From contig JAIPGM010000009.1 in NCBI GenBank assembly GCA_021735655.1, positions 1-64,000 on the forward strand: a stretch of 64,000 nucleotides of DNA, in the 5' to 3' direction. Under the pieces are notes generated by a model. It searched no databases. It was given only the letters and a program-made list of their open reading frames with translations, and had not been told where the DNA came from. Shown here piece after piece: positions 12,205-64,000 of this stretch. Numbering within the stretch: position 1 is the stretch's first letter; each line of letters starts with the position of its first letter. A program made the translations under genes and the position numbers. Source of the stretch: Candidatus Omnitrophota bacterium (GTDB lineage: Bacteria > Omnitrophota > Gorgyraeia > Duberdicusellales > 4484-171).

Positions 12205-12215
12205 AAATTTACCTC

Positions 12216-12617: not shown

Positions 12618-12692
12618 AATTACCCCCTTATTAAAAATTTACCAAACAAGTAAGAATAAAGATATTTCCTTACCCCTACCTATCTCTTTACA

Positions 12693-13043: not shown

Positions 13044-13063
13044 TTAAATCACCTCCATTTTTT

Positions 13064-13082
13064 GTTAATGATAATCATTTTC
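13064..13082 (-). promoter_or_regulatory. Fur box: 17 of 19 matches to GATAATGATAATCATTATC
   Basis: The plus strand reads GTTAATGATAATCATTTTC. It lies 20-40 nt upstream of the start of 12693..13043 and directly downstream of the fur stop. Confidence 0.6.
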
Positions 13083-13101
13083 ATTAATATTTTAAAAAAA
13101 A

Positions 13102-25979: not shown

Positions 25980-25988
25980 TATCTTATT

Positions 25989-26909
25989 TTAAACAACTGC
26001 ACTTTCGGCAACTGTTAATGACAGCCTATCAGCATCGATAGTTACCGGAAGTCCCAAAGGCAAGGTAACATGAAGCCCACCGCGCAAACGCAAATGCCCG
26101 GAAGGAAATCCATACAATACCGGGATATCCTGTCCTTTAAATAACTTTTCTATTAGTTTACGTAAATCATGGTCTTTACCTGAAGAGTCAAGCATTCTGC
26201 CTAAAAGTAACCCCTTGATATTTTTAAACTTCCCTGAACGCTTGAGACGAAAAAAATAATTTCTAATGGTATTAAAGTCTTCGTTGACGTCCTCTAAAAA
26301 CAAAATGCTGCCGGCAGTCCTTATTCGGTAAGACTTACCTATTGAATCAATGATTAAAGACATATTGCCGCCAACCAGCTTACCGGTAGCTACTCCCAGC
26401 TTAAAAGCAATCAGCTGGGGGAATTTCAATTCTCCCAAAGGCTTAGTTTCACTAAAAAGCCTTTGCAGATATTCAAGAGTCAGCTGATGCATTCCTTGAT
26501 AAATCTCCCCGGAAACTATCGGCCCGTGAAAAACAACCATCTTAGCCAATTTTTGCAAATAGAGTAAGATAATAGTTATATCACTGTACCCGAGAAAAAT
26601 TTTGGGATTTTTTCTAATAGTTTTCTCATCTAGGTAGGGTATAATTTCGGCTGAACCGTAACCGGCTTCAGCACAAAAAATAGCTCTCACTTCTTTGTCG
26701 GCAAACATCCGATTTATCTGCATGGCCCGCTGACGATCATGATCGGGCTTAGACCATTTCGGATCAAAAATTACTCGTTCATATTTAACTTTATAGCCTA
26801 GCTCTTTAAGCAGTTCAACGCCGCTTTTAAATTTATCCACATCAAAAGAACTTGCCGGAGCTACTATACCGATAGTATCACCAAGTTCTAATTTTTGAGG
26901 CTTACGCAT
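25989..26909 (-). CDS. LD-carboxypeptidase (peptidase S66; LdcA/MccF family)
   Basis: It has the GYSDIT nucleophile motif and a C-terminal GH...E triad region. There is a 2-nt gap to the upstream gene. Confidence 0.8.
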   Translation of the reverse strand: MRKPQKLELGDTIGIVAPASSFDVDKFKSGVELLKELGYKVKYERVIFDPKWSKPDHDRQRAMQINRMFADKEVRAIFCAEAGYGSAEIIPYLDEKTIRKNPKIFLGYSDITIILLYLQKLAKMVVFHGPIVSGEIYQGMHQLTLEYLQRLFSETKPLGELKFPQLIAFKLGVATGKLVGGNMSLIIDSIGKSYRIRTAGSILFLEDVNEDFNTIRNYFFRLKRSGKFKNIKGLLLGRMLDSSGKDHDLRKLIEKLFKGQDIPVLYGFPSGHLRLRGGLHVTLPLGLPVTIDADRLSLTVAESAVV

Positions 26910-44405: not shown

Positions 44406-46847
44406 CTATCTCTTAGGTGCTGACTTATTGTCCAACTTCTCAGCGACTCTTACCGCTTCAACACCATCTTTTGCGTATTTAGCACCTATTGAATCAGCAT
44501 AAGCTTTATTGACTACCGCCCCGCCAATCATAAATTTACATTTTAAACCTTCCCTCTCGGCGGACTTAACCACCTCATCCATATTAATCATAGTTGTAGT
44601 CATAAGCGCTGAGAGCCCCACAATATCCGGAGAATATATCTTTATATTCTGAATGATCTTTTTAGTCGAAATATCCTTTCCTAAGTCGATAATCTTAAAC
44701 CCGTGATTCTTAAGCATCAAAGCTACTATATTCTTACCGATGTCATGGACATCCCCCTTAACCGTAGCTAGAATAATTACTCCCTTTTTAGCCCAAGCTA
44801 ACTTCTGGTTCTTTAAGTAAGGCTCTAAACGGGAGACTCCTTTTTTCATCGCCTCAGCGCTGGCAATTAGCTGCGGCAGAAAGTATTCTTTTCGATCAAA
44901 AAGGTTACCAACCTTTATTATTGCCGGGGTCATTACCTGCTCTATAAGTTTTGACGGTGTCTCCCCCGACTCTAGAGCCTTTTGAATAAACTCTTCAATT
45001 TGGCTTCTATCCCCTTCAATAATCGCAATCGATACATAATCACAAGGAGAAAGCTTCTTTTTGCTTATTCTTTTACTGAAGGTTGATTCTTTTTGCTTAG
45101 CATAAGCAGCGATAAATTTTTCGCTAGCCTTAGGTTTATTAAATAATAAGTCTTCGGCTAATTTATTCCGTAAACCTGGTGAATCCTCAGGATCGGCAAT
45201 TGCTAAAGTTAGCCCTTTGATTCCGGCCAATTTTAAAAAAACTTTATTAATTAAATGTCTCTGAGGAAGCCCAAATGAAATATTCGAAAGCCCAACTATT
45301 GTTTTAGCTTTAAAGCTCCTCGTGCACCAGCTGATAGTCTTGAAAACCTCTCCAGCAGCCTGAGCATTCCAAGAAAGCGGCATCACTAGCCCATCAATTA
45401 AAATATCCTCTTTAGAAAATCCTATTTTTTTTGCCGCCTTAAAAACGGCCTCGATTATCGGCTTACGTTCCTTAAAAGTTTTAGGGAGCTTTTTTCCGGC
45501 CAAAGGCAAGATTATAAACATTGCTCCGTATTTTTTAGCTATATTAAGTAGCTTTTTAAGCTTTCGACTTTCTCCGGAAATAGAATTAATCAAAGCTCGT
45601 CCAGGATAGAATCTTAAGGCTTGCTCGATAACTTCAGGATTTGCTGAGTCAATTACCAAAGGCAATGAAGTTGCAAGTGGCAATAACGATATAACTTCAA
45701 GCATCGCCTTTTTCTCATCAACTCTTGGAGCGCCCAAATTTACATCCAAAAGCTTTGCTCCCTGAGCCTCTTGAGCTTTAGCAAAAGTGCGGATTTGGGT
45801 ATATTTATTTTGAAGCAACTCGGCTTGCATAGTCTTTTTACCGGTTGGATTTATTTTTTCACCAACAACAATCGGAAATTTTTCTTTCTCGAAAATAAAA
45901 ACTCCCCGAGCAGAACTTAAGGCCGCTATCTTTTTTCGCTTAGGAAAAACTGGCTTACTCCTTAAGGCAACTTTTTTTAGCTTAAAGATATGTTCCGGCG
46001 TTGTTCCGCAACAACCGCCGATTATAGTTGCTCCGGCAGTAATTAACTTTTTAGCCGAATCAGCAAAATCTCCGGGCTTCATATTAAAAACAGCCTTGTT
46101 ATTAATAAGCTTCGGCATGCCGGCATTTGGTTTAGCTACCAAAGGCACAGTGCTATATGGCCTCATCTTTGAAATTATCTTAACCATAGCTTGAGGGCCA
46201 CTTGAACAATTGCAACCTATAGCATCAGCCCCTAAACTCTGTAAAGTAATTAAGGCACTAACCGGATCATTACCATTTAAAGTCCGCCCCCCTGACTCGT
46301 AGGTCATGGTTACTATAGTGAATTTATTAGTAAGCTCTTTTACTGCAATCAAGGCGGCTCGGGCCTCTTGAATATCAATCATCGTCTCAATAGCAAAAAG
46401 ATCAACCCCACCCAAAAGCAACCCCTTAACCTGCTCTTTATAAATATCTACGGCTTGATTAAAATCCAAAGAGCCAAAGGGCTTAATAAACTCACCGGTC
46501 GTAGCTATATCACCAGCAACTAAGGCTTTTTTGCCCACAGCCTGGCGGGCTAATAAGGCTAGACGTCGATTGACCGACACCACATCTTTAATCTTGAAAT
46601 GGGAAAGTTTCAGGCGATTGGCACCAAAAGTACAAGCATAAACTATATCCGAACCAGCCTTAAGATAGTCCGAATGGACACTTTTTGTAAGCTCAGGATT
46701 CTTAAGGCACCAACTTTCCGGACAAACTCCTTGAGGCATGCCGCGCTTATGCAACTCGGTTCCGGTTGCTCCATCAAGCAAAACAACACGCTTTTTTAGA
46801 AGTAGTTTGATTCTAGAATTACTCATAGCCTTTGGATGACTCCACAA
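44406..46847 (-). CDS. metH: Cobalamin-dependent methionine synthase lacking the activation domain (Hcy-binding, pterin-binding and B12-binding modules)
   Basis: It has a homocysteine S-methyltransferase N-terminus, a pterin-binding domain, and the B12 motif [11 protein letters not shown]. Confidence 0.9.
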
Positions 46848-47446
46848 ATAGCGGTAACTGATTTCTCAGGAATAAGTACATATCTATCGGTTATTGAAAC
46901 TTGGATTTTTTCTAATTGCAAAAGCCGATGAATTGTCTCTTGGTTTGTAAGTGCAAAATCACCATAACCGCAGGATATCCGTTTAGGAATCAACTGTTTA
47001 TTCTCACGTTTAAGTTGCGGTCCAAAATAATCTTGAATCCAGACAAATGAAGCATCAACAGTTTCCGAAGCAACCGCATCAAAAACAACTCCCCGAGTTA
47101 AATCGTTGTCTTTAACATTTGTAATCGCCTTGACTATTTCGGCCCCGGCGGTCGCCCCAATCAAAAGAAGCTCCTGGCAGTCTTCAAAAACCGACCCAAC
47201 AAGGTTGCCTTCAAAAATTACCCCTTCGGAAAGCTCTAATTTTGAAACATGCTTCATCTCAATGGCAATTCGCCGAGCGGCTCCTTTTAGCTGTATAAGC
47301 TGAACTGCCTCTTCAATATAGGCCTTAAGCTCTTTTTCCTGCTCAGAAGATATCTTAGTCACCCCCGGTTGATATCCTAAGCGGGCATATATTTTCTCAA
47401 TTGGTATTTTGACTCCGATTTGATTAAAAAATCTTACCTTATTCAT
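46823..47446 (-). CDS. Stand-alone methionine synthase activation (AdoMet-binding) domain protein
   Basis: It has RISCGYGDFALTNQ...[13 protein letters not shown], resembling the MetH activation-domain pattern PGYGDW...P.KSVSG. Confidence 0.65.
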   Translation of the reverse strand: MNKVRFFNQIGVKIPIEKIYARLGYQPGVTKISSEQEKELKAYIEEAVQLIQLKGAARRIAIEMKHVSKLELSEGVIFEGNLVGSVFEDCQELLLIGATAGAEIVKAITNVKDNDLTRGVVFDAVASETVDASFVWIQDYFGPQLKRENKQLIPKRISCGYGDFALTNQETIHRLLQLEKIQVSITDRYVLIPEKSVTAICGVIQRL

Positions 47447-47468: not shown

Positions 47469-48629
47469 TTAAAAGGCTGCTTTTAATATCCCTAAAACAT
47501 CTAAAGTCTCTAATTTTTTAAATGTCCCAATTGGACCAAAAACCATGGCCTTAGAAACTAATAATGAGAGCTCAGACTCTTTAACTCCTACTTCACGCAA
47601 AGTTTTCGGCATAGCCAAACTATCAAAAAATTCTCGAGTTTTCTTAATTGACTGTTTAGCTAGAGCAAACTTATCTTCCCCCTCTAGGCCCCAAACATTT
47701 ATTGCGTATTCAGCAAACTTATCAACCGTGGTTTCATTTAAAACTGCATTCATCCAAAACGGAACAATTATCGCCAGCCCGACCCCGTGAGTTACATCAT
47801 AAACCGCACTAACCGCATGTTCGATAGCGTGGGTTGACCAATCACCAATTTTACCATAGCTAAGCAATCCGCATAAAGCTAGGCTGCTAGCCCACATAAT
47901 ATTTGCCCGGGCCTGATAGTTTTTTGGTTCATTCATGACTACTGATCCATAATGTAGGCAAGTTTTAAAAATCGCCTCAGCTAATCTATCTTGCAAAAAA
48001 GCTCCTGAGACAGAAGAAAAATACTGCTCGATTACATGAACATAAATATCAACCACTCCGGCTGCAGTCTGCTCCTTAGGTAAGTTAAACATAACCTCAG
48101 GATCTAAAACTGAAAATTTTGGCCGAAGGATATCGCTTCCGGCAGCAAGCTTCTCCTGGGTCTGTTCATTGCTAATTACGCTATAGCCATTCATCTCTGA
48201 ACCGGAAGCCGCTAGAGTCAATACCGTGCCTAGAGCTAAGGCCTGTTTTATTTCTGTCTGCTTTGAGAAAAAATCCCAAGGATCCTGATCGTAAAGCGTA
48301 CCGCAAGCAACCGCTTTTGCACAATCAATGACTGAACCGCCGCCAACGGCTAAAACAAAGCCCAAATTATTCTCACGACAAAGAGCCACCCCCTCCCTAA
48401 CCGTCTTAATCCTCGGATTAGGCCTAACTCCCGATAGCTCTTTATAAAAAATATTATTCGCTTCTAATATTTTTACTATTTTTTGGTAAATACCGTTCTG
48501 CTTAATACTCGAACGACCATAGACTATCAGCACTCGATCGGCATATTTTTTTATCTCCGGACCAAGGCTATCAAGCCGATCCCTACCAAAAAATATTTTC
48601 GTATCAACTAAATAGTTAAAATCTAACAT
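47469..48629 (-). CDS. Iron-containing alcohol dehydrogenase
   Basis: It has the GGGSVIDCAKAVA motif and His-rich metal-site residues. The start was taken at MLDFNYLV. Confidence 0.85.
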   Translation of the reverse strand: MLDFNYLVDTKIFFGRDRLDSLGPEIKKYADRVLIVYGRSSIKQNGIYQKIVKILEANNIFYKELSGVRPNPRIKTVREGVALCRENNLGFVLAVGGGSVIDCAKAVACGTLYDQDPWDFFSKQTEIKQALALGTVLTLAASGSEMNGYSVISNEQTQEKLAAGSDILRPKFSVLDPEVMFNLPKEQTAAGVVDIYVHVIEQYFSSVSGAFLQDRLAEAIFKTCLHYGSVVMNEPKNYQARANIMWASSLALCGLLSYGKIGDWSTHAIEHAVSAVYDVTHGVGLAIIVPFWMNAVLNETTVDKFAEYAINVWGLEGEDKFALAKQSIKKTREFFDSLAMPKTLREVGVKESELSLLVSKAMVFGPIGTFKKLETLDVLGILKAAF

Positions 48630-48630
48630 C

Positions 48631-50247
48631 TTACTGAGGCTTTGGATGCTTTCCAAGCATAAGGTTTGTTTGAACACTTAAAGTAGCTGCAGCTGTTAAA
48701 AAAATTCCCACCGGAACTAAAAAAATTAAGGCGAAAAATTGAGAAATTTGGTTAAAGAAACCCAGCTTAGATTTCTTTCTCGGAAAAACTAAACTAGTCA
48801 AAACGATTGAAATAATAAAGCATGCTGTCATCAAAGCAAAAATTACAAAAGTTATTCTCGGAGCACTGTAATATATTCCGGAATCTGAAAATTCACGACC
48901 TGACAGTAAGGCCGGAAGCCAGCCAATGATAAATATAATAAAAGGCCAAACAGCCGGCAAGATTTGGGCCTCAAGCAACTTAAAGGCACAAATAATTTTT
49001 TTTAGAAACGGCATCCGGCCAATCCTTAAAAGGGCTCGCATCACAATCGGTAGATTCTCTCCGGCATAAGCTAAATTACATTTTTTCTTATAAAGTTCAG
49101 AAACTGAATCCGAAGAATCTCCAGCGATATCCATGGTAATTGGATAAGTAACATACAACGGATTAATGGTGAACGCACCATTAAAATTAATAAAAGCTTT
49201 CCAAAAAAATGATAAATCAGCTGAGATTAAATCGCTTGGCCAAAACTTAAGCTCAAGCAAAGTTGCCAAACTAACACTAAAACTAGAAAAAATAATCAAA
49301 TTGTCAGGATGAACCGCTTCAATTATTTGAAAAAATGAAGCGGCCGCGTTAAGAACCCTTCCTGGGGCCGAAGCTCGCCAAAGAGAAACGTCGTAAGCAG
49401 CAATCGCTTGAAAACAAGCCAGTTGACGACTAGGCAAAACCATAAAACGATAAGTAAGGCAACTGTAGTGGTCCGGATTAACTAAAGCTCCGGGCTCTAG
49501 AGATGAAGTAATCACATTTTCGTGGGCAATTTTCTTTTCTTTGAAGTAGTTAGCTGCCTGGCTAGCAGCCTGGCTAAGGATGGCCCCCTTAAAAGATTTC
49601 CCGGTTTGAGATTCAGCTGAGCAAGCTACGGTTAAAAAATCAAAAAACTTATCGCGATAACGCTCGATGAGACGCCGATTACTCAACTTTGCATTCTCGC
49701 TAACTCCCGGCTCAAAAGCCAAAACCACTACCATCCTTATTGAAGGAAAGTTACCGCCAATTAAGCTAGTAACTGTTTTTGAAATCAAATTCTCTTGATT
49801 ATCACTAACCGGAATTATAATTAAATGATGTATATCATCTAATTGCGGCGCCTTCTGTTTACTTTTCTCTAAAAGACGCATTTCTTTTCTATGAATTAAA
49901 AATGATATGTCTTGCTTAGTTTTAGATGCCGCCTCTAAGTCATTTAACTCTTTCCAATAAGTATAGATACGATTTAAGCCTCTTGCCCGCTCCGGCCAAT
50001 TAGCCTGTGACTCAAGTTCCAAGCGAGAACATCTAAGAACAAAAGATATCGCCATATAAAGAAGACGCAGAAACCAGTAAAAACTAAAAGCGATAGTAAT
50101 AACTGCGGCGATAAGTGGCCTCACAAAGCAAACTACAGTCAGCGCCAAAAGAATAGTCCAACTTATAGCTGCTGGCAAGATTTCAAAAAATCTTTGCAAT
50201 ATTTTATCTAATTTACTTAAATTCTTATATGAAAATTCAAACTCCAT
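48631..50247 (-). CDS. Polytopic membrane protein, possibly a degenerate GT2-like glycosyltransferase
   Basis: It has 2 N-terminal and about 4 C-terminal TM helices. The central region has IIIPVSDNQEN, resembling the GT2 IIPAYNEE block, but no clear DxD or QxxRW. Confidence 0.4.
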   Translation of the reverse strand: MEFEFSYKNLSKLDKILQRFFEILPAAISWTILLALTVVCFVRPLIAAVITIAFSFYWFLRLLYMAISFVLRCSRLELESQANWPERARGLNRIYTYWKELNDLEAASKTKQDISFLIHRKEMRLLEKSKQKAPQLDDIHHLIIIPVSDNQENLISKTVTSLIGGNFPSIRMVVVLAFEPGVSENAKLSNRRLIERYRDKFFDFLTVACSAESQTGKSFKGAILSQAASQAANYFKEKKIAHENVITSSLEPGALVNPDHYSCLTYRFMVLPSRQLACFQAIAAYDVSLWRASAPGRVLNAAASFFQIIEAVHPDNLIIFSSFSVSLATLLELKFWPSDLISADLSFFWKAFINFNGAFTINPLYVTYPITMDIAGDSSDSVSELYKKKCNLAYAGENLPIVMRALLRIGRMPFLKKIICAFKLLEAQILPAVWPFIIFIIGWLPALLSGREFSDSGIYYSAPRITFVIFALMTACFIISIVLTSLVFPRKKSKLGFFNQISQFFALIFLVPVGIFLTAAATLSVQTNLMLGKHPKPQ

Positions 50248-50253
50248 ATCTAT

Positions 50254-51699
50254 TTACCTCTTCTTGCTTAAGTATTCTCGATAAGAAAATGGCCTTTCTC
50301 GATTCAGGTCAATAACTTCAGCGCAACTTAACTTTTTAGTAAGCGCATCCAAATAATATAACTTTCCATTATCCTCCAAATAGTGAACTGAAGAATTAGT
50401 TTTTATTTTAATAATTTGATTAGGAGCAGCCTCCCCCTCAGCTTTAAGCTCAAAAATAAAAACTTCGTCAGCATCAGCTAAAACAATATAAGTTCCCTGA
50501 TAGGCCCAAAAACTCTGAGTAATATCACGACCCTTAGTATAAAACCAGTACCCTTTCGTCGGTGTGGTCTTAACATAGGTAGGATCTACCGCCAATAAAG
50601 GCCGATAATCCATAATTCCAGCCTGCTTCTTCATCCAAAACAATACCCGTTTAGTCTTTCGATGAAACTCAAGCCCCCTAACTCCACTTTCGGTAATACG
50701 ATGCGGCAAATGGTTGCTTAAAAGCTTTCCCTCTTCACCAAGAAAGATAATTAAATCCTCATCTAAAGGTTTAACCTCAAAGAATCCTTTATCTCCAAAA
50801 AGAAATTTACCCAAAATCGGATCATTTATCAAAACCTTTTGATTTCTTCGAGCATAATTAATACGAAAAAGAGTATTAATCTCTTTTAAAACATATATTT
50901 TGTTGTTAAAAAGACCATAGCCACGTAAATTGTCTATATAATCAGCCTCTAACGATTGTTCAATTAAATCTATTTTACTAAGGCTATTGTTCTCAAAAGG
51001 AAAAAAATACCTAGACTGTCCTGGCTCCCAAATAATATGCTCAGGGCTTCCGGTAAAAAAACGACTAATATCTTTAACATTAACATAATCAATATCTTGT
51101 TCGATTAAAAGATACTTTTCTCCATTGAAATTTCTAACCCTAGCAATCACCGTAGAACTTTCCTTAATCTTAAATAGGGAAACTACCTCGTAATTCGCCA
51201 AGGTTGAATCAGAACGCACAAATGATGTTAGAGCTTCTGACTTTGAATCAAAGCTGTAATAATCTCTAAGCTTAGGACCTTTAGCTAAAATAAAAAATCT
51301 ACTTCCGGATAATGGGATCAGCTTTTGAAAAGAATCAGAAGATAGTTCGCGGGTTACCCATCTCTGTGGAATCAATAAAATTTTATCGAAAACAGATGCT
51401 AATTTAGGGAGAGCGGTAATTTTATAATGCCAAGGCTTATAATTTTTTAAGGAAAGTGTGACATCGTATGATCCCGGCAACATGCCAGATAGGGCCGCTG
51501 GAGTTTTCTCGGTAAAACGCCTCCCTTCAACATGAATTGTAGCGCCCGGCGGACTGCTAGAGAGGAAAATAAGACCAGCCAAATCACCCTCGCCCCCTGG
51601 CCTCATAATTCGGCCAAAACTATATAAAAGAAGTAAAGGACAAAGAATAAGATAAGCTGCTATGAAACTAAAAAGGAGTGTTTTTCTTAAATAAAGCAT
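50254..51699 (-). CDS. PEGA-domain protein with an N-terminal membrane anchor
   Basis: It has the PEGA-like segment IHVEGRRFTEKTPAALSGMLPGSYDVTLSLKNYKPW. Confidence 0.6.
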   Translation of the reverse strand: MLYLRKTLLFSFIAAYLILCPLLLLYSFGRIMRPGGEGDLAGLIFLSSSPPGATIHVEGRRFTEKTPAALSGMLPGSYDVTLSLKNYKPWHYKITALPKLASVFDKILLIPQRWVTRELSSDSFQKLIPLSGSRFFILAKGPKLRDYYSFDSKSEALTSFVRSDSTLANYEVVSLFKIKESSTVIARVRNFNGEKYLLIEQDIDYVNVKDISRFFTGSPEHIIWEPGQSRYFFPFENNSLSKIDLIEQSLEADYIDNLRGYGLFNNKIYVLKEINTLFRINYARRNQKVLINDPILGKFLFGDKGFFEVKPLDEDLIIFLGEEGKLLSNHLPHRITESGVRGLEFHRKTKRVLFWMKKQAGIMDYRPLLAVDPTYVKTTPTKGYWFYTKGRDITQSFWAYQGTYIVLADADEVFIFELKAEGEAAPNQIIKIKTNSSVHYLEDNGKLYYLDALTKKLSCAEVIDLNRERPFSYREYLSKKR

Positions 51700-51895
51700 A
51701 ATCTAAACCTAAAATAAGTACCTTATACATTATAACAAAATGTAGAAAAAATGTAAGCCTATTTCCCTTAATAAACATTACGCTATTATCTATCCGCTTT
51801 CTACCTTGCTACTTTTAAAGGCAATCATATTTTATTTACCTCCGATTATTCAATATGGTAATATAAAATCACCTCAATAGAATAAAAATAAGACT

Positions 51896-52175
51896 ATGCA
51901 AATAAATCTGGCTAAATCTTCTGGTTTTTGTTTCGGGGTAAAAGAGCTGTTAGCATTACCCTATCTAGCTCAAAAAAAGTTCAGAAGTTACAAAAAGCCG
52001 CAGTAGTGGTTCAATCAACTCAAAATTTTGAAAAAAAACGCTTAAAACCGTTAAAAAGCTTACTAAATACATTAAAAACCTATGGTTTAAAGGAATAAAA
52101 AAAGTAGGGATTATAGCTGGAGCTTCAACACCTGAATCTACAACTAAGACAATTATTGAAAAAATACCCGCCTAA
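51896..52175 (+). pseudogene. ispH: Relic of ispH/lytB (4-hydroxy-3-methylbut-2-enyl diphosphate reductase), internally deleted
   Basis: The plus-strand ATG at 51896 encodes MQINLAKSSGFCFGVKELLALPYLAQKK, followed by a stop at 52004. In another frame, 52032-52175 encodes ...KGIKKVGIIAGASTPESTTKTIIEKIPA*. Both fragments match IspH termini. The roughly 200 central codons are missing. Confidence 0.6.
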
Positions 52176-52185: not shown

Positions 52186-52761
52186 CTAAGGAATCCTATT
52201 TTTTGCCTTCTTCAATAAAGTATATTCAACATAGCCGCATAAAACTTCCTGCACCTTAGCCGGGGGCGGGACAGCAAAGTAATGAGAAATGACTGCATGA
52301 GCCATCTCATGACCAAGCATGCCAAGAGTTAAGTCTTGATAGGAAATATAGATTGTATTTTTGGAATGAAGATAGAAAGAACGCTCCGGAAAACTAGAAC
52401 CAAAATAACTGCTAAACACTGAGCTCAAAGATGACTGATCCGGAAGAATGCTTATCTTGCCGTGAAAGCTATAAACATGGATATCGAGGATATCGGAAAC
52501 TTCCAAATACAAATCATCCATCGCCTGTGCTATGAGAGAGTAAGAATCATTTTTCTGCTTGCCAAAAAAACTGTCAACATTTCCTAAATAGCTAAAATTT
52601 ATTTTACTTAACAAAGAAACAACATCTAGCTTGCGAGACCCATAAACCGAAAAGTATTTTCCGGTAGCAAGAAGCGAAAGGCTACCCTCTTGAGCTAAAA
52701 CCTTAGGAGTAAATAAAACCCCTAACATGACAATAGACAGTATTAAGCTCTTTTTCATCAA
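52186..52761 (-). CDS. Secreted protein with an HExxH motif (putative small zinc metallopeptidase-like)
   Basis: It has a signal peptide and GHEMAHAV. Confidence 0.5.
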   Translation of the reverse strand: MMKKSLILSIVMLGVLFTPKVLAQEGSLSLLATGKYFSVYGSRKLDVVSLLSKINFSYLGNVDSFFGKQKNDSYSLIAQAMDDLYLEVSDILDIHVYSFHGKISILPDQSSLSSVFSSYFGSSFPERSFYLHSKNTIYISYQDLTLGMLGHEMAHAVISHYFAVPPPAKVQEVLCGYVEYTLLKKAKNRIP

Positions 52762-54018: not shown

Positions 54019-57000
54019 TTACAAATCAGTTGCTTTTTTCTTCTTTTTCTCATCATCGTCTTTGCCGCCAAAATAAGGAGCTAGAGTCCCTTTGAGGTTA
54101 ATATTCTGCTCAATGAACTCATAAGCACCACTATCTAGGCTAATACCATCAAAGCCTGACTCATCGGTTACAGTTAACGGATGATAAGCATAAAAATCGG
54201 TGCTTCTAACTGGGGTAACTGTACTAAATCTATAGTTAGCCATCAATTCATAGTAAGTCCTAGAATCACGCAAGATACTTGCTAAAAATTGAGCACCGTC
54301 AAATTCTGGTAAGAAATCTGGCCAAATCTGCTGAGGTCCTAAGTTAGCTGCCGCAGGGCCAAACAAAGGTGAAGCACCTCTGGTGTCGGTATCATCATAA
54401 AAGATGTATCCCGGAGGTGTAACATTGGTTAAGTCAATATCTGGCGATGGAAAAACCCCGGTAACTGCTGTAACCCCAGGTCTAACTATACCTTCAATGG
54501 CTCCGCTTACCCCTAAGGTACCACTAGGACCAGCTAAGGTAAAACCAGGAGCAGCGCCACCTATCTCTAGGGTAAGCCCAGCAACTGGCGTAAAACCAGC
54601 AGGAACTGCCCATTTTGAAGGATCTAAATCCACTGCCTGAATATTTACATTTAAAGGATTATAAAAATTATCTGCATCTACTGGAACTCCTGCGTTACCA
54701 ATTCCAATTGTGCCTTCTGGTGTTGAGAAATAAGAATAACTTCCAGCAATTACGTTTGGCCCAGAAACCGGGTCAACTACGTAATGTGAAAATACATCTA
54801 TTCCACCATCGGTCGACCAAGGAGTACCAGTTAAGTCCATCGGAAGCGCTCTTGCGAAATCATTTACCGTGTCAGGACCAGTTGTTACGTCTGGTTGTAC
54901 TCCGCTAGGATCCCAGCCGGTTCCGGCATAAATCGAGCCAGTGCGGCTTTCTAAATAAACTCCACCGCGCGGTGCGATAACTGAGTTAACTGTCATGTCC
55001 CCACCACTACTAACATTAATTATCCCATTATTAGCAGCAACTGAAAGACCATAAAGAGTGCCTGCGTCCTCAGTCAAGGTACCTAGGGTAATGCTGTCTA
55101 ATTCATTAACGTAGATGTTTCCTACATCCCAAGAGTAAGCACTTAAATAATCAACTGCTGTCATAAATGGCGAAGCACTGGTACCGATATTGTGACGGGC
55201 CAATAACCCGGCAAAATCAGCGCTAACCAGCGAAGTAGCATCACCATAGATATTACCTTCCCAAGCATAGATATCTACTTCTGAGCTGCCTGTACCGCCA
55301 ACTGAAGCTGAAATAGAGCTATTAGCAAGGGTTACATCGCCGTTACCAGAGATTAAAGTTGCTCTGGCATCGCCGTCACCTATCATCTCAGCTGAAACAG
55401 TACTATCAGTAATATTTACACCCAAATTAGCAAATAATTCAACTAAAGCTGTATCACTACCACTTAAAGCTTGAGCTAAAATAGTGCTGCCATTAGTTAC
55501 GTTAATTTCACCATCTTGGGCGGTTACGCCTATTTCGGCATGACCTTCTCCATCTACGTCAGCAGTAATATCACTATTGCTAATATTAACATCGTTAAGG
55601 GTATTAATATCAACAAGGGCTATTCCTTCATTGCCTACTAAAGCTTCCAAGGTTGAATCGGTAATTGTTGTACTATTCCCAGCAACGCTAAGAATAGTTG
55701 CATCACCATCATTGCCAACTGAAGCTATTACTGTACTTTCTATTACCTCTATGTTGCCTTTGTCGGCAGCCAAGTTAACCGTAGCATCGCCATCATTTAC
55801 TACTGATGCAGCAAGTGTACTCGGATCAATGGTTATATCATTTGCGGCAAGAACGTTAATCGTAGCATCGCCATCATTACCAACCAAAGCTTCCAAGGTT
55901 GAATCAGTAATTGTAGTATTGTCGCCAGCTTCTAAGTTAACTGTTGCGTCACCGTCATTACCAACCAAAGCATATCCATAATCAGTGTAGGCTTCAACAT
56001 GACCAGTATCGACCTCGATATCATCTTCAGCTTCGATATTGACAGTGGCTTTGATGTCGCTGTCTTGGATTTCGACTCTTTCATCAGCTTCTAGATTGAT
56101 CTCAGATTTAACCGTACTAGAAGAGATCTTGACATCATCAGCTGATACTATATCGACCTGAGCTTCAATTGTCTCATCAGTTACTTCGATGTTTTCTCCA
56201 GCTTCAATGTCAATTGTTGATTTTACAGTGCTGTCTTGAATTATTAGGTCATTCCACCAGTTGCCTTCTTCAGGATCCCAACCACCGACTACTAGGTCGA
56301 TCTCGGATTTAACGGTGTCAACGTCATCGCCGTTGGTGATCTCAACGTCATCTTCAGCATCGATGTCAACTGTGGCTAATACATTACTGTTAACAATCTC
56401 CATCCTCTCATCAGCCTTAAGCTCGACTTCAGACTCGATATGGCTGTCGATTGACTTTACGTCATCTGAGGACTTAAGAGTTACTTCAGATTCGATGGTC
56501 TCACCAGTTACCTCTATAGTATCCTCAGCAGTTACATCGACTAAGGCCTTAACGGTTGATTCTTCAATTACCAGGTCGCTCCAGTTGCTGTCATTGTCAC
56601 CACTCCAGCCGCCGGCTACCAGATCTATTTCAGCTTTGATAGTTTCACCTTCAGCGTTAGTGATTTCAACGTCATCTTGAGCCTCAATCTCAATAGTAGC
56701 TAAGATATCGCTGCTTTCAATTTGCAGACGGTCTTGAGCTACTAGTTCAAGTTCGGCTTCTATAGTGCTATCAGTTATCTTTACATCGTCTGAAGACTTA
56801 AGAGTTACTTCAGATTCGATGGTCTCATCAGTTACTTCAATCTTGTCATCGGCAGTTACATCTACCAATGATTTAACTGTTGAATCTTCAATTACCAGGT
56901 CGCTCCAGTTGCTGTCATTATCACCACTCCAGCCGCCGGCTACCAGGTCTATTTCAGCTTTAACAGTAGTCTCACCTTCAGTGATCTCAACGTCATCTTC

Positions 57001-60000
57001 GGCGTCAATAGCTACAGTTGCTAGAATATCACTGTCAGTTATTTCTAAACGATCATCAGCTACTAGCTCGGTTTCAGCTTCGATAGTGCTTTCAGAGATC
57101 TTCACATCGTCGCCGGAAGCTATATTAACTGTTGATTCAACAGTCTCACCGGTTACTTCGATCTTGTCATCGGCAGTGATATCGACCAGTGATTTAACCA
57201 AACTGCTGTTGATTATTACATCATTCCACCAGTTACTTGCATTGTTTACCACGATATCAATCAATGAGCCGATAGTTTTACCGCCGTCATTGGTGATCTC
57301 AACGTCATCTTCAGCTTCGATATTGACAGTGGCTTTGATGTCGCTGTCTTGGATTTCGACTCTTTCATCAGCGCTAATCCTAACTTCGGCCTTAACATCA
57401 CTAGAAGCAATCTTTACGTCCTCATCGGCACTCAAGTTTACTTCTGCAGTTAAGTCTTCACCGTCTAAGTCGATATTAGAATCTTCCAATTCGACTTTAG
57501 CCAATACTGTACTGCGTGTTACCTCTATATTGTTGTCAGCTTGGGCATTAACCGTTGCTTGGCCTTTTCCTTCTAAAATCGCCTCGACTGTACTGTCCTC
57601 TATTTTAATGTCATGATCAGCTTGTAAGTTAACTCTTGATTCACCATCAAGATAGTTAATCGCTCTAACCAAACTGTCATTCTTTACTATTAAATCATTA
57701 CCAGCAGTAATATTTACACTGGCTACGCCGGTGTCAGAAGGTGGATCGATTGCTCTAACAGTGCTGTTATCCACAGTCACATTGCCTAAATCGGAATGGA
57801 TACCAATATAGGCGCCACCATCAGATGAAGGGGCAAGTTTAGAAAAAGCGCTTACTAAGCTATCCTTGATCACTATATCATTATCGGCAAGTAAGTTAAT
57901 CCAGGCTGATGCACCAAGGGCCCTGGCGATAACATCACTTCTTAATAAACCGATTCTATTAGCATCGAATCTAATTCTTGATAGTCCACCAAGATTTAAC
58001 TCATTAGTAACTACCCTTGAGTCAATCACCCTAATATCATCATTAGCATCGAAGAAAATCCTGGCTAAGTAATTACCGAACGAATTAGCTCTAACTACGC
58101 TACCGTCTCTTAGACCGATGTTTTTACCAGCATGAAACTCAACATTTGCCGGACCATTATTAATTGAGGTAGCTGCAACTCGTGAGTTTGTTAAACCGAT
58201 ATTATCCCCAGCATCTATTGTAATAATTGCTGAGGCTACTCCATCAAGCACCTGGCTCAACAAATCGCTGTTGTTCAGAAATACATCACTAGCAGCATCA
58301 ATATCTATCTCAGCATGGCCGGTGTTTGACACTATTGCTTTCACTTCACTGTCATCGATTGTAATATCGCCATTCTCGGTCGAAATATCTACATAAGCAT
58401 TACCGTTCAAAACTGATGCTGTAATGTAGCTTGTGTCTATGGCAATGTTATCACCGGCAGATAGATCAACTGAAGCATCGCCGTCACCCTCAACGGTTGC
58501 ACTTACAGTGCTGTCAGTGATGGTTAAATCTCCATTCTCAAGTGTACCCGATGTAGGAGGAACAGGTTCGTAAGGAGTGGTCCAATCACCAGCTACCATT
58601 TTAACCGTAGCATTACCGTTTCCGGTTACATTAGAAGAAACTGTACTATTAGCAACACTAATGTTCTCACCTTCAGCAAAAACCTCTGCATTACCAGTAC
58701 CGGTTTGAGCTGAAACTGTACTTGAATCGTTTATATTAAGATCAGCGCCATGGAAAGTGCTGTTATACAAATCTGGATCAGGAAAATTTATCATAATCCC
58801 ATCTGCATGCAATCCGGCGCTAAGTTCAACATTGGCATCGCCGGTTCCTTGAGTGATTGCGCTAACTGTGCTGTCAACAACATCGATCCCCTGCCAAGCA
58901 CGGACAGTTGTTGTAGTATCACCATTGCCAGCTGTGAAAGCTCTGACTATGCTGTTGTTTTGTATTGCGGTATTGCCAGAAGTTCCAAAAAAGACTGTTG
59001 AATCTCCGTCATTACCAACAGTGGCTTCGATTGTACTGTTATCAACTGTTTGAGAGGCAATCGGCCCATGAGTAAGCAGTGAAACTTCAGCATCACCGTC
59101 ATTGCCAATAGCCGCTGAAACAGTACTATCTAAAACTTGTAACGGCCCAGCCGATCTTAAAACAACACTAGCGGTGCCATTTAAAGCTGAGGCCGAAATC
59201 AAACTCGGGTCTATAGTCAGAGTTCCGTCGGCAATCATATTTCCAGCAGTTAAATCAACTGAAGCATTGCCAGTGCCTACGACAGTAGAAGTAATATCAC
59301 TATCGGTTACAGTAACATTTGTACCAGCATCTACATCAATCGAAGCATCGCCATCAAGGCCAATTCTAGCTAAGATATCGCTATCGACTATCGAAACTAG
59401 ACCATTAGTTGCATTTGCAATAACTGTTGCATCTCCACCGCCGCGGACTCTTGAACGAATTAGGCTATTGTCCCTAATGGAGATTCCTCTTCCCGGTGTT
59501 GTTAAGCTAACTGAAGCATTTCCATTGCCATTAACCCAAGCATCAATGACGCTTGAGTCGTACACACTGATTCCATTGTCAGCATCAGCAGTAATCAAAG
59601 CATTTCCATCGCCCGCACGAAAAGCCTCAATAGTTCCATCTACAAAAAGAGTTCCACTGTTAACGTCTAAATTAATAACTGCATCATCAGCTGGACCAGA
59701 TCCAGTTGCCAAAACTGAATAAGCATAAGTATCTCCACCGGTAATAATATCGACTACACTCCCTAGAGCCTGGATATCCCAAAGATTTACACCGTCTAAC
59801 TCGTTAATCCATACATCGCCACCTAAAGCAATCGCTTGCCAGATATCATCTACGTTAGTGTCAATATGATCACCTGGGACACCAATAGTACCAGCTGCAT
59901 TCATGTAAAGATTTGGAGCTGTTAAATTAATGCGATTACCATTAGTATCGAGAATATCGCCTGCAGAACTAGTTAAACGAATATTATCGCCAGCATTAAT

Positions 60001-63000
60001 AACACCTAAAGAAATATTACCAACTGCATTAATATTAGCATCATGACCAGCCGTAACAGTGCTATTCGATACCACAACCTGACCATCAGCGTCAATATTT
60101 ACATCATAACCTGCGGTCATATCACTTGAACCATTCATGATAGTATCTCGACCGGTGACAACGTTAATACTTCCGTCAGAAAGTAACGCCGAGCTTTGGC
60201 TCATGATTAAATCCTGAGCTGCATAGATATCAACCAATCTGCCTGAGCGGATAGTTGAATTATTGTTCATAAGAACATCTCTCTGGGCATCTACGTCAAC
60301 CCAAGCTGTACCTAAAATATCTGCATTGTTAAACATCCTTAAGTCTGCATCAAGGTTTACATCAACAATTCTGGCTTCAATTGATGAGTTGTTATGCATA
60401 CCTAAACCAAAAGCGTCAATGCGTGCATTAGTGGCATTAATTGCTGAAGTATTATACATTCTCATAAGATTAGCCACATCAATCGTTACATTTGTACCTG
60501 AGATAGATGATCTATTATTCATTGTAAAATTATCTGGCCCTGCTCCATCACCTACGTTTACAAATATATCAGTTCCGGTAATCGAAGATGTGTTATTCAT
60601 CTCCATATAATCATCGGCTGAAACATTCACCGTAGCACCATGGATAAGAGCATCGCCGTTCATAGTTAAAGTATCATTGCCAGATCCATTGCCAGCTGAA
60701 ACATTAACTATACCGCGTGTGCCAATAGTGCCTGTATTGTGGACTAGATCGTTATCGGCATGTACATTAACTGTACCTGAGCCAAGGCTGATAACATCAG
60801 CGTTAACTGTCATATCAGCTCCGGGGCCAGAACCATTAGCTGCTAAACTAACATCACTATTTCCAACAACATCAGCATTAACTGTCATTGGCGAACCAGT
60901 AGTAATATCAATATTTCCACTACCAAAGTTCTTTACGGCATATCCCCATCCTGGCAAATCATTGAGGGCTATAGCACCCTTATTGCGAATAGTGATATCA
61001 CCGCTTGAATCAGGATCGCGTACCTGTGCGCTTAAACTGCCAATTCGAGTTTTCAAATCAATTGAAGTCTTTGCATCAAGTATCGCTGTATCAGAAATGA
61101 TGTTTGGCCCAAACCCACTATTACCTATAATAGAGCCGGTAAAGTTAAATGGATAAACATCGTAGCCCATTGTCAAAAGAATAACATCAGTTGCAATTAA
61201 TTGGTTAATCGCTAAGTCAGTTAGCTCATTTAAATTAATAAGCCCGCCAACGCGACCCTCTAAAGTTTCTATCTCGGTCTCGATTCCATTACCTAAACCA
61301 GCGAGACCAACATTACCGTCAACATCAAAGGCAAGTGTGTCAGCTACAATATCAGTGCCGATGTCGCCTGAGCCCTGCTCCTGCACATCACCTGAACTGA
61401 TTAGCTTAAATTTCAGCCCCGGCTGATCTAAATTATTAATTGTGATAGTTCCGGCGCTACTTGAACCGATATTGATAAAACCAGAAGTAATCAAATTGTA
61501 GATTTCATCATTAGAAAGCCTAAACTGACCATAAGCTAAATGTGCGGCTAGAGCAATTGTCTGAGCAGCGCTTGGGGCAATAGTAATATCTGCCGTGCCG
61601 GCATCTACGATACCGTCAACATTAATGTCATCAGCGCTTATGTAGACTTCTCCGTCAGTTGCTCCAGTTGTATCTATAACCGAACCATTTTGCAAATCAT
61701 AGAAACCAGTAGTATCACCATCGCTATCAGCTGAACCGGTAAAGCTTCCACCACCGGTGTAAACATCTCCACCAGAACTATGGATAATATCACCTACGGC
61801 AGCCAAAATTACATCTCCGCCGCCACTATTGATCAAAGCATTAACATAAAGGTTAGGATCATCAACTACGGCTATATCAATAAGTCCGTTGTTAGTAGTA
61901 ATCGCACCATCAAGCCATAAATCACCAGAGTTAATCAAACTGAAGCTATCTCCGTCAAATCCACCAAAATGCATTGCACCAGCATGATACATGGCGGCTC
62001 TTTGAGCAGTAATAGACATATTGTTTGATCTTAATTCAAGAGCACCATTTGTACCAAAACCGATATCACCACCGGCATTAAAATCTATGGTATTGGCTGA
62101 TATATCAAAGTTAGTAATACCACCTGCAACCTTATCAATTCCATCAACAGCATTGCCACTATCATAAGCATCATTGATATTTCCACCGGCCGTAACTGTT
62201 ACTGTTCCTAATGCAGGAATAGCTGAACCAGTAAAAGTACCATCAGTTGAAACCCTAGTAACATAAGCATCTTGGGCAGCAGTTAAGTCAATATCTCCGC
62301 CGTCAGTAACTACGCTGCCTGTTTGACTAATAGCCAAATCTCTTCCAGCATCAAGACCAACATTGCCAGCGCTTGAATCAACAGCAGCATTTACTGACAA
62401 ATCTCCATCAGCACCAGCTGCAGCTAAACTAATATCGCCCAAGGCTAAAACATCAGAATTTACTGTTAAAGGAGAAGCTGTAGAAATATCAACTGCTCCA
62501 CCGATATTATTAACACCACTACCGGCGATAGTTAGATCTCCAGTATTATCAATTTCTATATTTCCTGAAATCGTATTAAGAGCTTCTAAATTACTTACCT
62601 GTGTTTCTAAAGCATCGCCGGAACCGATTCCTTGAGCTGCAGAAATGCTTAAAGAATCAGCGGTGATATCAGGAGTAGTGGCACTATTAGCATCTACTAC
62701 TGCCCCATCACTTGAATTTATATTAACATTTACACCACTCAATCCAGTTGTAACTGTTGTTGAAGTGGCGCCTAAAGGATCGCTTCCTACCTCATAAGAT
62801 GCTTTTAACCACGCATCACTTCTGGCAACATTTGAAACCCTGACTTCATCAATCTGGCCTTCAGTTAAATAATTTGTATCACCCCAACCGCCAATCATAA
62901 AGTCGGTAGCAGTATCGACATCGCCTGATGAAGTTGCAAAACCAATATTGTCACCTGCGCCATCTACATACAAACTTCCTGAACCACCGCTACGAGCAAG

Positions 63001-64000
63001 CACAACATTATGCCAAGACCCATCAGCTATATTAACAGAACCATCGTCTGCATCGTTATTGATCCAGCTTCGAGCTTGACCATTATGATTTTCCAGGGTA
63101 TAGCCAGAACCTGCTCCAGGAGTAGCACCAGCCAAACCAATATAATCCTCTGACTGATTTCCCTTATACCAGGTTTCAATGGTAAAATCGCCTGTTCCTA
63201 AACCAAGACCATTCCCAATATCAATAAAGCTACTTCCATCAAAATCAGCTGCATTACCCATTTCTCCATCAACGAGGGTTGTACCGTTATTTGTTCCATC
63301 GTTACCGTTAGCTGTTGAATCATTGTAGTCATTCATATGATGAACCATTAGATAACCATTGCTCCAAACATCGGTTGAATCGTTTTCCGGTGCGCCATAA
63401 CTAGCGAAAGCAAAATTCTCGGAAGGTAAGTTTGTGTTATCGTCATGATACATTGAAAAAGTGGTAGTAAGGCTATCACTTACGCTATCTAATTTAACCC
63501 AAATAAAAGCTTCCTGAGTTCCACTGTTCCAACTTTCAATTTCGTAAGAAAGCACTTTTCCGTCAGGCCCGACAAAACGCACGTCAGAACCATCGACTTG
63601 AGCTTGAGAAAAATCAAAATTACTGCTATCTAATTTTATTAAAACTGGGAAATCGGTAAGGGTGGAGTCAATGAGGCTTGGGTCAATAGTAAAATTCTCT
63701 TTATAACGCCAAGCCGGAGCAATCATCACATCATTGGTCGCCTCGATATTAATATCCTTAGCCGAAGATATTGCCCGAACAGTTACGTCGTAACCGCTAA
63801 TATTAACGTCACCTGAAGTAATACTGGTTGTAATAATAAAACCGAAATCTTGGAAAAAGTCACCAGTACCATTACCATCATTATCGGCCCTAAAAGTTAA
63901 ACTTCCATCATTTCCAGTAATGTCGCCTTTAACGACTATGTGTTCATTATCAAGCCAGGTTTGATTACCGGTATAAGTACCGCCATATATATAGGTATGG
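54019..64000 (-). CDS. Giant extracellular or surface protein (at least 3,327 aa in the window; 5' end beyond the window) with DUF2341, a LamG-like domain and beta-solenoid or adhesin-like repeats
   Basis: The reading frame stays open from 63729 to the window edge at 64000 (verified codon by codon), so the protein's N-terminus lies outside the window. The DUF2341-like segment is APAWRYKENFTIDPS...VLIKLD...DGSDVRFV...YEIESW. A ConA/LamG-like block follows. Long Asp/Thr/Asn/Gly-rich periodic repeats follow that. The C-terminal tail ends in KKKKK. Confidence 0.85.
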   Translation of the reverse strand, partial: HTYIYGGTYTGNQTWLDNEHIVVKGDITGNDGSLTFRADNDGNGTGDFFQDFGFIITTSITSGDVNISGYDVTVRAISSAKDINIEATNDVMIAPAWRYKENFTIDPSLIDSTLTDFPVLIKLDSSNFDFSQAQVDGSDVRFVGPDGKVLSYEIESWNSGTQEAFIWVKLDSVSDSLTTTFSMYHDDNTNLPSENFAFASYGAPENDSTDVWSNGYLMVHHMNDYNDSTANGNDGTNNGTTLVDGEMGNAADFDGSSFIDIGNGLGLGTGDFTIETWYKGNQSEDYIGLAGATPGAGSGYTLENHNGQARSWINNDADDGSVNIADGSWHNVVLARSGGSGSLYVDGAGDNIGFATSSGDVDTATDFMIGGWGDTNYLTEGQIDEVRVSNVARSDAWLKASYEVGSDPLGATSTTVTTGLSGVNVNINSSDGAVVDANSATTPDITADSLSISAAQGIGSGDALETQVSNLEALNTISGNIEIDNTGDLTIAGSGVNNIGGAVDISTASPLTVNSDVLALGDISLAAAGADGDLSVNAAVDSSAGNVGLDAGRDLAISQTGSVVTDGGDIDLTAAQDAYVTRVSTDGTFTGSAIPALGTVTVTAGGNINDAYDSGNAVDGIDKVAGGITNFDISANTIDFNAGGDIGFGTNGALELRSNNMSITAQRAAMYHAGAMHFGGFDGDSFSLINSGDLWLDGAITTNNGLIDIAVVDDPNLYVNALINSGGGDVILAAVGDIIHSSGGDVYTGGGSFTGSADSDGDTTGFYDLQNGSVIDTTGATDGEVYISADDINVDGIVDAGTADITIAPSAAQTIALAAHLAYGQFRLSNDEIYNLITSGFINIGSSSAGTITINNLDQPGLKFKLISSGDVQEQGSGDIGTDIVADTLAFDVDGNVGLAGLGNGIETEIETLEGRVGGLINLNELTDLAINQLIATDVILLTMGYDVYPFNFTGSIIGNSGFGPNIISDTAILDAKTSIDLKTRIGSLSAQVRDPDSSGDITIRNKGAIALNDLPGWGYAVKNFGSGNIDITTGSPMTVNADVVGNSDVSLAANGSGPGADMTVNADVISLGSGTVNVHADNDLVHNTGTIGTRGIVNVSAGNGSGNDTLTMNGDALIHGATVNVSADDYMEMNNTSSITGTDIFVNVGDGAGPDNFTMNNRSSISGTNVTIDVANLMRMYNTSAINATNARIDAFGLGMHNNSSIEARIVDVNLDADLRMFNNADILGTAWVDVDAQRDVLMNNNSTIRSGRLVDIYAAQDLIMSQSSALLSDGSINVVTGRDTIMNGSSDMTAGYDVNIDADGQVVVSNSTVTAGHDANINAVGNISLGVINAGDNIRLTSSAGDILDTNGNRINLTAPNLYMNAAGTIGVPGDHIDTNVDDIWQAIALGGDVWINELDGVNLWDIQALGSVVDIITGGDTYAYSVLATGSGPADDAVINLDVNSGTLFVDGTIEAFRAGDGNALITADADNGISVYDSSVIDAWVNGNGNASVSLTTPGRGISIRDNSLIRSRVRGGGDATVIANATNGLVSIVDSDILARIGLDGDASIDVDAGTNVTVTDSDITSTVVGTGNASVDLTAGNMIADGTLTIDPSLISASALNGTASVVLRSAGPLQVLDSTVSAAIGNDGDAEVSLLTHGPIASQTVDNSTIEATVGNDGDSTVFFGTSGNTAIQNNSIVRAFTAGNGDTTTTVRAWQGIDVVDSTVSAITQGTGDANVELSAGLHADGIMINFPDPDLYNSTFHGADLNINDSSTVSAQTGTGNAEVFAEGENISVANSTVSSNVTGNGNATVKMVAGDWTTPYEPVPPTSGTLENGDLTITDSTVSATVEGDGDASVDLSAGDNIAIDTSYITASVLNGNAYVDISTENGDITIDDSEVKAIVSNTGHAEIDIDAASDVFLNNSDLLSQVLDGVASAIITIDAGDNIGLTNSRVAATSINNGPANVEFHAGKNIGLRDGSVVRANSFGNYLARIFFDANDDIRVIDSRVVTNELNLGGLSRIRFDANRIGLLRSDVIARALGASAWINLLADNDIVIKDSLVSAFSKLAPSSDGGAYIGIHSDLGNVTVDNSTVRAIDPPSDTGVASVNITAGNDLIVKNDSLVRAINYLDGESRVNLQADHDIKIEDSTVEAILEGKGQATVNAQADNNIEVTRSTVLAKVELEDSNIDLDGEDLTAEVNLSADEDVKIASSDVKAEVRISADERVEIQDSDIKATVNIEAEDDVEITNDGGKTIGSLIDIVVNNASNWWNDVIINSSLVKSLVDITADDKIEVTGETVESTVNIASGDDVKISESTIEAETELVADDRLEITDSDILATVAIDAEDDVEITEGETTVKAEIDLVAGGWSGDNDSNWSDLVIEDSTVKSLVDVTADDKIEVTDETIESEVTLKSSDDVKITDSTIEAELELVAQDRLQIESSDILATIEIEAQDDVEITNAEGETIKAEIDLVAGGWSGDNDSNWSDLVIEESTVKALVDVTAEDTIEVTGETIESEVTLKSSDDVKSIDSHIESEVELKADERMEIVNSNVLATVDIDAEDDVEITNGDDVDTVKSEIDLVVGGWDPEEGNWWNDLIIQDSTVKSTIDIEAGENIEVTDETIEAQVDIVSADDVKISSSTVKSEINLEADERVEIQDSDIKATVNIEAEDDIEVDTGHVEAYTDYGYALVGNDGDATVNLEAGDNTTITDSTLEALVGNDGDATINVLAANDITIDPSTLAASVVNDGDATVNLAADKGNIEVIESTVIASVGNDGDATILSVAGNSTTITDSTLEALVGNEGIALVDINTLNDVNISNSDITADVDGEGHAEIGVTAQDGEINVTNGSTILAQALSGSDTALVELFANLGVNITDSTVSAEMIGDGDARATLISGNGDVTLANSSISASVGGTGSSEVDIYAWEGNIYGDATSLVSADFAGLLARHNIGTSASPFMTAVDYLSAYSWDVGNIYVNELDSITLGTLTEDAGTLYGLSVAANNGIINVSSGGDMTVNSVIAPRGGVYLESRTGSIYAGTGWDPSGVQPDVTTGPDTVNDFARALPMDLTGTPWSTDGGIDVFSHYVVDPVSGPNVIAGSYSYFSTPEGTIGIGNAGVPVDADNFYNPLNVNIQAVDLDPSKWAVPAGFTPVAGLTLEIGGAAPGFTLAGPSGTLGVSGAIEGIVRPGVTAVTGVFPSPDIDLTNVTPPGYIFYDDTDTRGASPLFGPAAANLGPQQIWPDFLPEFDGAQFLASILRDSRTYYELMANYRFSTVTPVRSTDFYAYHPLTVTDESGFDGISLDSGAYEFIEQNINLKGTLAPYFGGKDDDEKKKKKATDL
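55930..57290 (-). repeat. Tandem repeats of about 330 nt (about 110 aa), 4-5 copies, inside the giant gene
   Basis: The protein unit ...NWWND/AGGWSGDNDSNWSDLVIE(D/E)STVK.LVDVTA.D.IEVT.ETIESEV... recurs. Stretches of about 68 nt are identical at 56030-56100 and 57300-57370. Confidence 0.7.

Follow-up and report, generated by a model that had tools for sequence, protein, structure and literature searches.

The gene ispH (lytB), which is normally indispensable, encodes the enzyme of the final step in the MEP route by which bacteria make isoprenoid precursors. A 64,000-nucleotide (nt) stretch of a Candidatus Omnitrophota genome (hereafter referred to as the window) carries what a preliminary description regarded as an internally deleted, frame-shifted relic of this gene. 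The locus therefore raises the questions of whether the relic is genuine, how the gene decayed and how a lineage carrying it would obtain its isoprenoids. The features on which the analysis rests are as follows.

51896–52175, plus strand: ispH (lytB) pseudogene, whole; 280 nt remaining of a gene of ~850 nt.
51896–51943, plus strand: fragment A, frame 1, MQINLAKSSGFCFGVK; IspH residues 1–16, with the start codon and the first Fe–S cysteine motif GFCFGV.
51940–51943, plus strand: run of four A in the relic versus five in the orthologues, from the DNA alignment.
51944–51967, plus strand: fragment A′, frame 3, (R)AVSITLSS; IspH residues ~17–24.
51973–52083, plus strand: fragment B, frame 3, including KKVQKLQKAAVVVQSTQNFEKK; IspH residues ~148–186, with its core at 51994–52036.
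52071–52175, plus strand: fragment C, frame 2, LWFKGIKKVGIIAGASTPESTTKTIIEKIPA and a stop codon; IspH residues ~244–275 and the stop, with the WFKG...AGASTP end.
50254–51699, minus strand: PEGA-domain protein of 481 aa, the syntenic anchor on one side.
52186–52761, minus strand: conserved 191-aa protein with no family match, the other anchor, convergent with the relic.

Comparison with intact proteins revealed that the relic consists of three collinear pieces in three reading frames, which correspond to residues ~1–24, 148–186 and 244–275 of a 284-aa orthologue. The ATG at 51896 opens a frame of 36 codons (MQINLAKSSGFCFGVKELLALPYLAQKKFRSYKKPQ, followed by a stop) that ends at 52006 on the plus strand and has the IspH N terminus that the preliminary description had recognized, and the near-invariant residues of fragment A are kept. 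At the A-run, the relic reads GGGGTAAAA-GAGCT and the orthologue in the relative L005 reads GGGGTAAAAAGAGCC, with the preceding 47 nt of the relic aligned. Restoring one A converts GVKELLALP into GVKRAVSITL, where the L005 orthologue has GVKRAIKIAL; thus, the 1-nt deletion in the A-run puts the GVKRA segment out of frame and leaves the 36-codon frame at 51896–52006. The first large deletion, 3′ of fragment A′, spans residues ~25–147 (~370 nt) and removed HNE and DATCP, the latter with the second cysteine. Fragment B, which in a longer reading of the third frame contains RAVSITLSSSKKVQKLQKAAVVVQSTQNFEKK and the VVVQSTQN block, is 49% identical to residues 148–186 of the IspH of L007 (tblastn), with a DNA identity of 70–77% in its core. 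The second large deletion, 3′ of fragment B, spans residues ~187–243 (~170 nt) and removed NTIC, with the third cysteine, and GSK-SANT. Fragment C then closes the gene in another frame, ending in GIKKVGIIAGASTPESTTKTIIEKIPA and a stop at 52175, in agreement with the frame-shifted C terminus described before.

In a DNA alignment with three intact orthologues, the relic retains 280 nt against 846–885 nt, a total loss of ~575 nt. The ~600 nt of central gene previously said to be missing was thus about right in size, but the centre partly survives: the middle fragment, which lies in the remaining frame, had been overlooked. Because residues ~148–186 survive, there must have been at least two separate deletions in addition to the 1-nt frameshift. 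The deletion end points are approximate, as there is no sequence of a close ancestor to compare (even the nearest relatives are only 55–65% identical in the flanking PEGA protein), and short matches aligned inside the first deletion may be due to chance.

The pieces hold up as IspH on proper alignment. The joined three-frame translation (93 aa) matches the Pfam LYTB profile (PF02401) with E = 2.6e-12 and 47 bits, against a cut-off of 24.5, and covers only profile positions 1–37 and 233–266 of 267; the C-terminal piece alone matches with E = 4e-7. When an intact Omnitrophota IspH was compared by tblastn with the whole 64 kb, the only matches above noise were the three relic pieces (E = 1.9e-7, 8e-5 and 0.013–0.06), with residues 1–21/24 at 51896–51967, residues 148–186 at 51973–52083 and residues 244–275 at 52071–52166. 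The relic shares GFCFGVKRA, VVVQSTQN and AGASTP with intact Omnitrophota ispH.

By contrast, the relic falls short of IspH in every functional feature. An intact gene has one open frame of ~280–320 codons, whereas the longest frame from the relic's start has 36 codons and the coding sequence is spread over three frames. Among the three [4Fe–4S] cysteines (C12, C94 and C190 in L005 numbering, the equivalents of E. coli C12, C96 and C197), only that of GFCFGV remains; the second and third are gone. The HNE motif, H122 and E124, and S218-x-N220 (L005 numbering) all lie within the deleted stretches. The deleted motifs HNE, DATCP, H-x-E, NTIC and S-x-N, which do not vary among 14 intact IspH proteins, supply two of the three [4Fe–4S] cysteines and the catalytic residues of the enzyme. 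With these lost, the relic cannot encode an active IspH. It belongs to the IspH family by descent and falls short of every functional hallmark of that family.

We next consider whether the sequence is genuine. An assembly or sequencing artefact, in which an intact ispH was collapsed or mis-joined, was offered earlier as the alternative, and two facts would suit it: the source is a metagenome-assembled genome (MAG), and the 1-nt frameshift lies in a homopolymer, a place prone to sequencing errors. However, over 9,069 bp that include the relic, the window is 100% identical to a Logan assembly of run SRR12088349, although this contig was probably built from the reads that also gave the MAG and is thus an independent assembly and not independent data. 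Moreover, the gene carries at least three separate lesions, not one junction, and both flanks are collinear with relatives. The GC content of the relic (32.5%) and of the spacer (29.6%) is low, as is typical of non-coding DNA, compared with 39% for the window and 41–44% for the intact orthologues. The identical second assembly, the multiple lesions and the drift towards AT together make mis-assembly very unlikely.

The position of the relic identifies its ancestor. The gene orders at the orthologous site, with slashes marking the anchors and numbers giving protein lengths in aa, are as follows.

L005 (JAHKAJ010000035.1): giant ORF, SurA_N, 189, 190 / ispH, polyprenyl synthase / PEGA, 538, 207, MetH; spacer 2.0 kb.
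L007–L009 and L097: SurA_N, 189, 191 / amino oxidase, ispH, SQS_PSY, two lycopene cyclase subunits, TPR, polyprenyl synthase, UbiA, Pyr_redox_2 / PEGA; spacer ~8.4 kb.
L011: NYN / ispH / PEGA.
Window: giant ORF, SurA_N, 189, 191 / ispH relic only / PEGA, 538, Fe-ADH, 207, MetH; spacer 486 bp.

The intact ispH genes of the relatives (MBU2044973.1 in L005/L012, and those of L007–L009 and L011) occupy the same site, from the 190/191-aa gene to the PEGA gene. The 191-aa protein of the window is 64–67% identical to the product of the gene beside ispH in L005 and beside the ispH cluster in L097, the flanking proteins of the window are 52–67% identical to their L005 counterparts, and the PEGA-domain protein is 35–65% identical to those of the relatives. 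Orientation is conserved as well: the relic, like the ispH genes of L005 and L011, lies on the strand opposite to the surrounding genes, and in L005 both ispH (284 aa) and the polyprenyl synthase gene do so. The flanking genes and the orientation match those of intact copies in relatives; the relic is therefore an orthologue that decayed where it stood.

All Pfam-supported genes of the window are on the minus strand, and the nine long plus-strand ORFs (118–283 aa) have no family match, so that the relic was fairly described as the only plus-strand coding signal. The plus-strand GC skew is strongly negative across the window (−0.13 to −0.27).

The L005 arrangement first suggested to us that the relic had lost an adjoining polyprenyl synthase gene on its upstream side; tblastn found no trace of a polyprenyl synthase in the window. 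The sequence upstream of the relic can be aligned with its counterpart in L011, in which ispH and the PEGA gene face each other directly.

Collectively, we regard the feature as a real, decayed ispH pseudogene and the last recognizable piece of the isoprenoid gene block of its relatives, with a probability of about 0.92. As a kind, it is a routine pseudogene, the outcome of ordinary gene decay.

The block of which it is a remnant is widespread. When species-representative genomes were scanned using an IspH alignment, the best 80 ispH loci were mostly from Omnitrophota, and within the fetched locus they contain genes for a polyprenyl synthase (39 loci), SQS_PSY (26), an amino oxidase (21) and a lycopene-cyclase subunit (16), which directly adjoin ispH in the examples listed. 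In the distant relative L024, the pair of PEGA and 538-aa genes also adjoins such a cluster. A carotenoid-like cluster is thus a common setting of ispH in Omnitrophota, and the association of ispH with the PEGA locus is an old one. The combination of polyprenyl synthase, SQS_PSY, amino oxidase, two small lycopene cyclase subunits and UbiA resembles the crtE-B-I-Ye/Yf-Eb clusters for C50 carotenoids, a likeness that we take as a lead only. Whereas carotenoid-type clusters are the usual context of ispH in many Omnitrophota, none of these genes is left in the window: the lineage has lost the whole isoprenoid block save the ispH relic. Across the relatives and the window, the stretch from the 190/191-aa gene to the PEGA gene measures 8.4 kb, 2.0 kb and 0.49 kb.

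Over the surviving 203 nt, the relic is 67–72% identical to intact orthologues, which are 70–75% identical among themselves. It keeps 25 of 27 near-invariant residues, and its mean protein identity to 120 intact IspH proteins is 58.6%, compared with 68.5% among the intact proteins over the same columns. Since the relic is nearly as similar to the orthologues as these are to one another and almost all near-invariant residues are kept, the inactivation of ispH was probably recent when set against the divergence from the closest relatives sampled. Two or more internal deletions, of ~370 and ~170 nt, and the 1-nt frameshift have removed the two cysteines, the catalytic His and Glu and Ser-x-Asn, and the start, a middle piece and the end of the gene remain in order at the orthologous position. 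In the nearest sampled lineages, L002 and L010 (65% PEGA identity), NYN stands directly beside PEGA and no trace of ispH was found at the site; loss there thus seems to have occurred repeatedly within the clade. An iron-containing alcohol dehydrogenase gene (Fe-ADH; 47469–48677, minus strand), located between the 538-aa and 207-aa genes, is also present in L002 and absent from L005, L007 and L011, and this shared insertion supports grouping the window with the L002 lineage. A neighbour-joining tree of 120 IspH proteins gave no resolved sister to the L005/L007/L011 clade and hence no phylogenetic position for the relic.

The survival of the two ends of the gene suggests a further alternative, in which the relic is kept for a new role as a 36-aa peptide, a regulatory RNA, or promoter or terminator sequence of the neighbours. 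Two promoter-like sites bear on it.

51851–51871, plus strand: promoter-like block upstream of the relic, caatatGGTAATATaaaatca, with TG-n-TAATAT of the extended −10 type at 51856–51864.
51729–51757, minus strand: promoter-like site of the divergent PEGA gene, CTTACA-17-TATAAT with TG, from a promoter scan.

The block at 51851–51871 aligns upstream of the intact ispH in L011 (TGGTAACAT) and upstream of the polyprenyl-synthase–ispH pair in L005 (TGATAGCAT), and this conservation suggests that it may act as a promoter; a simple promoter scan did not call it. The PEGA site is conserved in L002, L010 and L011. A start codon thus remains behind a conserved promoter-like block, the surviving ends border on the promoter of the PEGA gene and on the 3′ terminus of the 191-aa gene, and a weak AU-rich hairpin with a U-run lies just downstream of the 191-aa gene on the minus strand, all of which would suit a new role. 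However, the relic region has no Rfam match and folds no better than shuffled sequence (z = +1.6), which argues against an RNA element or structured transcript in the relic; in addition, no terminator-like site was called in the spacer and no second genome with the relic was found. No exact match to the deletion junction emerged when JGI metagenomes were scanned. We therefore consider a new role improbable and retain the reading of a plain pseudogene, whose ends may survive simply as they adjoin sequence still in use, namely the promoter region shared with the divergent PEGA gene and the last part of the convergent 191-aa gene.

The remainder of the window has several features of its own. A giant ORF of 3,236 aa (54019–63729, minus strand) has N-terminal DUF2341 and Laminin_G_3 domains followed by long D/N/S/T-rich repeats, and resembles the adhesin-like giant ORFs of Omnitrophota (PMC10066038); L005 has a homologue at the same position. 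At 44406–47446 (minus strand), MetH (813 aa) is without a reactivation domain and adjoins a 207-aa ORF with a weak Met_synt_B12 match, a split arrangement that every relative shares. A 731-aa fusion of a KamA-type, lysine-2,3-aminomutase-like radical SAM domain and a D-Ala–D-Ala-ligase-like ATP-grasp domain (26912–29107, minus strand) adjoins, together with 24903–26909, an LD-carboxypeptidase (S66) and a RimK-like ATP-grasp protein, and with these neighbours may form a beta-amino-acid ligation module. Finally, an Fe–S-related block at 7289–13584 (minus strand) encodes two MinD/ParA-type ATPases with 4Fe–4S ferredoxin inserts, two Nitro_FeMo-Co (NifX/NifB-C-like) proteins, a DUF5320 protein, a CoA-binding protein, a pyridine nucleotide-disulphide oxidoreductase and Fur.

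How, then, would this lineage obtain isoprenoids? One answer is that the ancestral copy was free to decay because the genome has, at another site, a mevalonate pathway or a second functional ispH, be it paralogous, xenologous or relocated; the other is that the relic records the loss of the only ispH, such that the MEP pathway is incomplete and a host or partner supplies IPP and DMAPP or finished isoprenoids. No second ispH and no MEP or mevalonate gene was found within the 64-kb window. Among the top 120 of 7,834 matches, none of the ten nr-named Omnitrophota IspH proteins checked comes from the accession block of the window proteins (MCF7908566–8627). The best 80 ispH loci from species-representative genomes all come from different assemblies, with no Omnitrophota assembly occurring twice and thus no within-genome duplicate of this type of ispH, whereas a search of a collection of 5.8 billion proteins with the 93-aa translation, which gave two word-index candidates only and no match, was uninformative about a close intact paralogue. 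Several candidates were set aside: L069 (JAKQLT), considered as a second ispH of the window genome, lies in an unannotated MAG and thus in a different genome; P0059, considered as the ispH of the L002 lineage, comes from an unrelated sample; and with regard to hopanoid genes, which would have been a sign of isoprenoid use, the MMPL and B12-radical-SAM proteins of the window score far below the HpnN, HpnJ and HpnR cut-offs.

The searches of the window, the named proteins and the 80 loci speak against a second copy and for a lost pathway, as far as they reach: the paralogue checks covered the top 120 of 7,834 matches and two peptide patterns among the loci listed, and 64 kb is a small part of a genome in which MEP genes are usually scattered. 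A second copy is favoured by the consideration that decay of an essential gene normally presupposes redundancy. There are genomes with two lytB genes, such as that of M. tuberculosis with lytB1 and lytB2 (PMC4550268), and such a pair would explain the decay of one copy of an essential gene, although here, unlike in M. tuberculosis, no second copy was found. The clean absence of ispH from the site in the sister lineages L002 and L010 fits relocation and loss of the pathway alike. The metagenome of L002 also contains, on another contig, an Omnitrophota polyprenyl-synthase–ispH pair (L092–L095, for example, ERZ24794671 NODE_81932), though its coverage of 4.4x versus 13.8x for the L002 lineage indicates that it probably belongs to another organism. 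We hold that the decay of a copy made redundant in this way comes close to an even chance.

Loss of the pathway is in turn favoured by the disappearance from the window of the isoprenoid-consuming genes that stand beside ispH in the relatives. A 2023 survey of the phylum can be read both ways, in that it proposed host-dependent traits for Omnitrophota but found C5-isoprenoid synthesis to be complete or near-complete (PMC10066038). Isoprenoid auxotrophy has precedents in Rickettsia, Orientia and Mollicutes: the isoprenoid-precursor pathway is partial or lost in Rickettsia parkeri, Orientia and Mollicutes, and Listeria innocua is without ispG and ispH (PMC6854040, PMC13001223). In these host-dependent or dual-pathway bacteria the terminal MEP step has been lost, as with the relic, which lies in a lineage suspected of dependence; the comparison sets whole genomes, with experiments for Rickettsia, against a single decayed gene within 64 kb of MAG sequence. 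The window itself argues against such a loss, as it encodes broad biosynthesis (MetH, GlnRS, Fe–S assembly and transporters) and cell-wall enzymes that need undecaprenyl phosphate. We view loss of the only ispH as a serious possibility, somewhat short of probable, and overall give a copy or pathway elsewhere and a cell with no IspH and imported precursors roughly equal weight. The fuller scenario, in which the lineage first shed its carotenoid-like cluster, recently lost its only IspH and now, as an isoprenoid-precursor auxotroph, depends on a host or partner for IPP and DMAPP or polyprenyl compounds, is accordingly more tentative.

Our findings document that ispH is embedded in a carotenoid-like cluster in many Omnitrophota. 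The stepwise shrinkage of the isoprenoid cluster and the decayed ispH mark the lineage of the window as one to test, and the sister lineages without ispH at the same site hint at repeated loss. If the scenario of auxotrophy is true, the locus would provide genomic evidence of isoprenoid auxotrophy, which the 2023 survey did not report (PMC10066038), in a phylum suspected of host dependence, with the relic of the lost gene still readable. The value of the relic thus lies in what it points to, which would be either auxotrophy, and with it host dependence, or replacement of the pathway.
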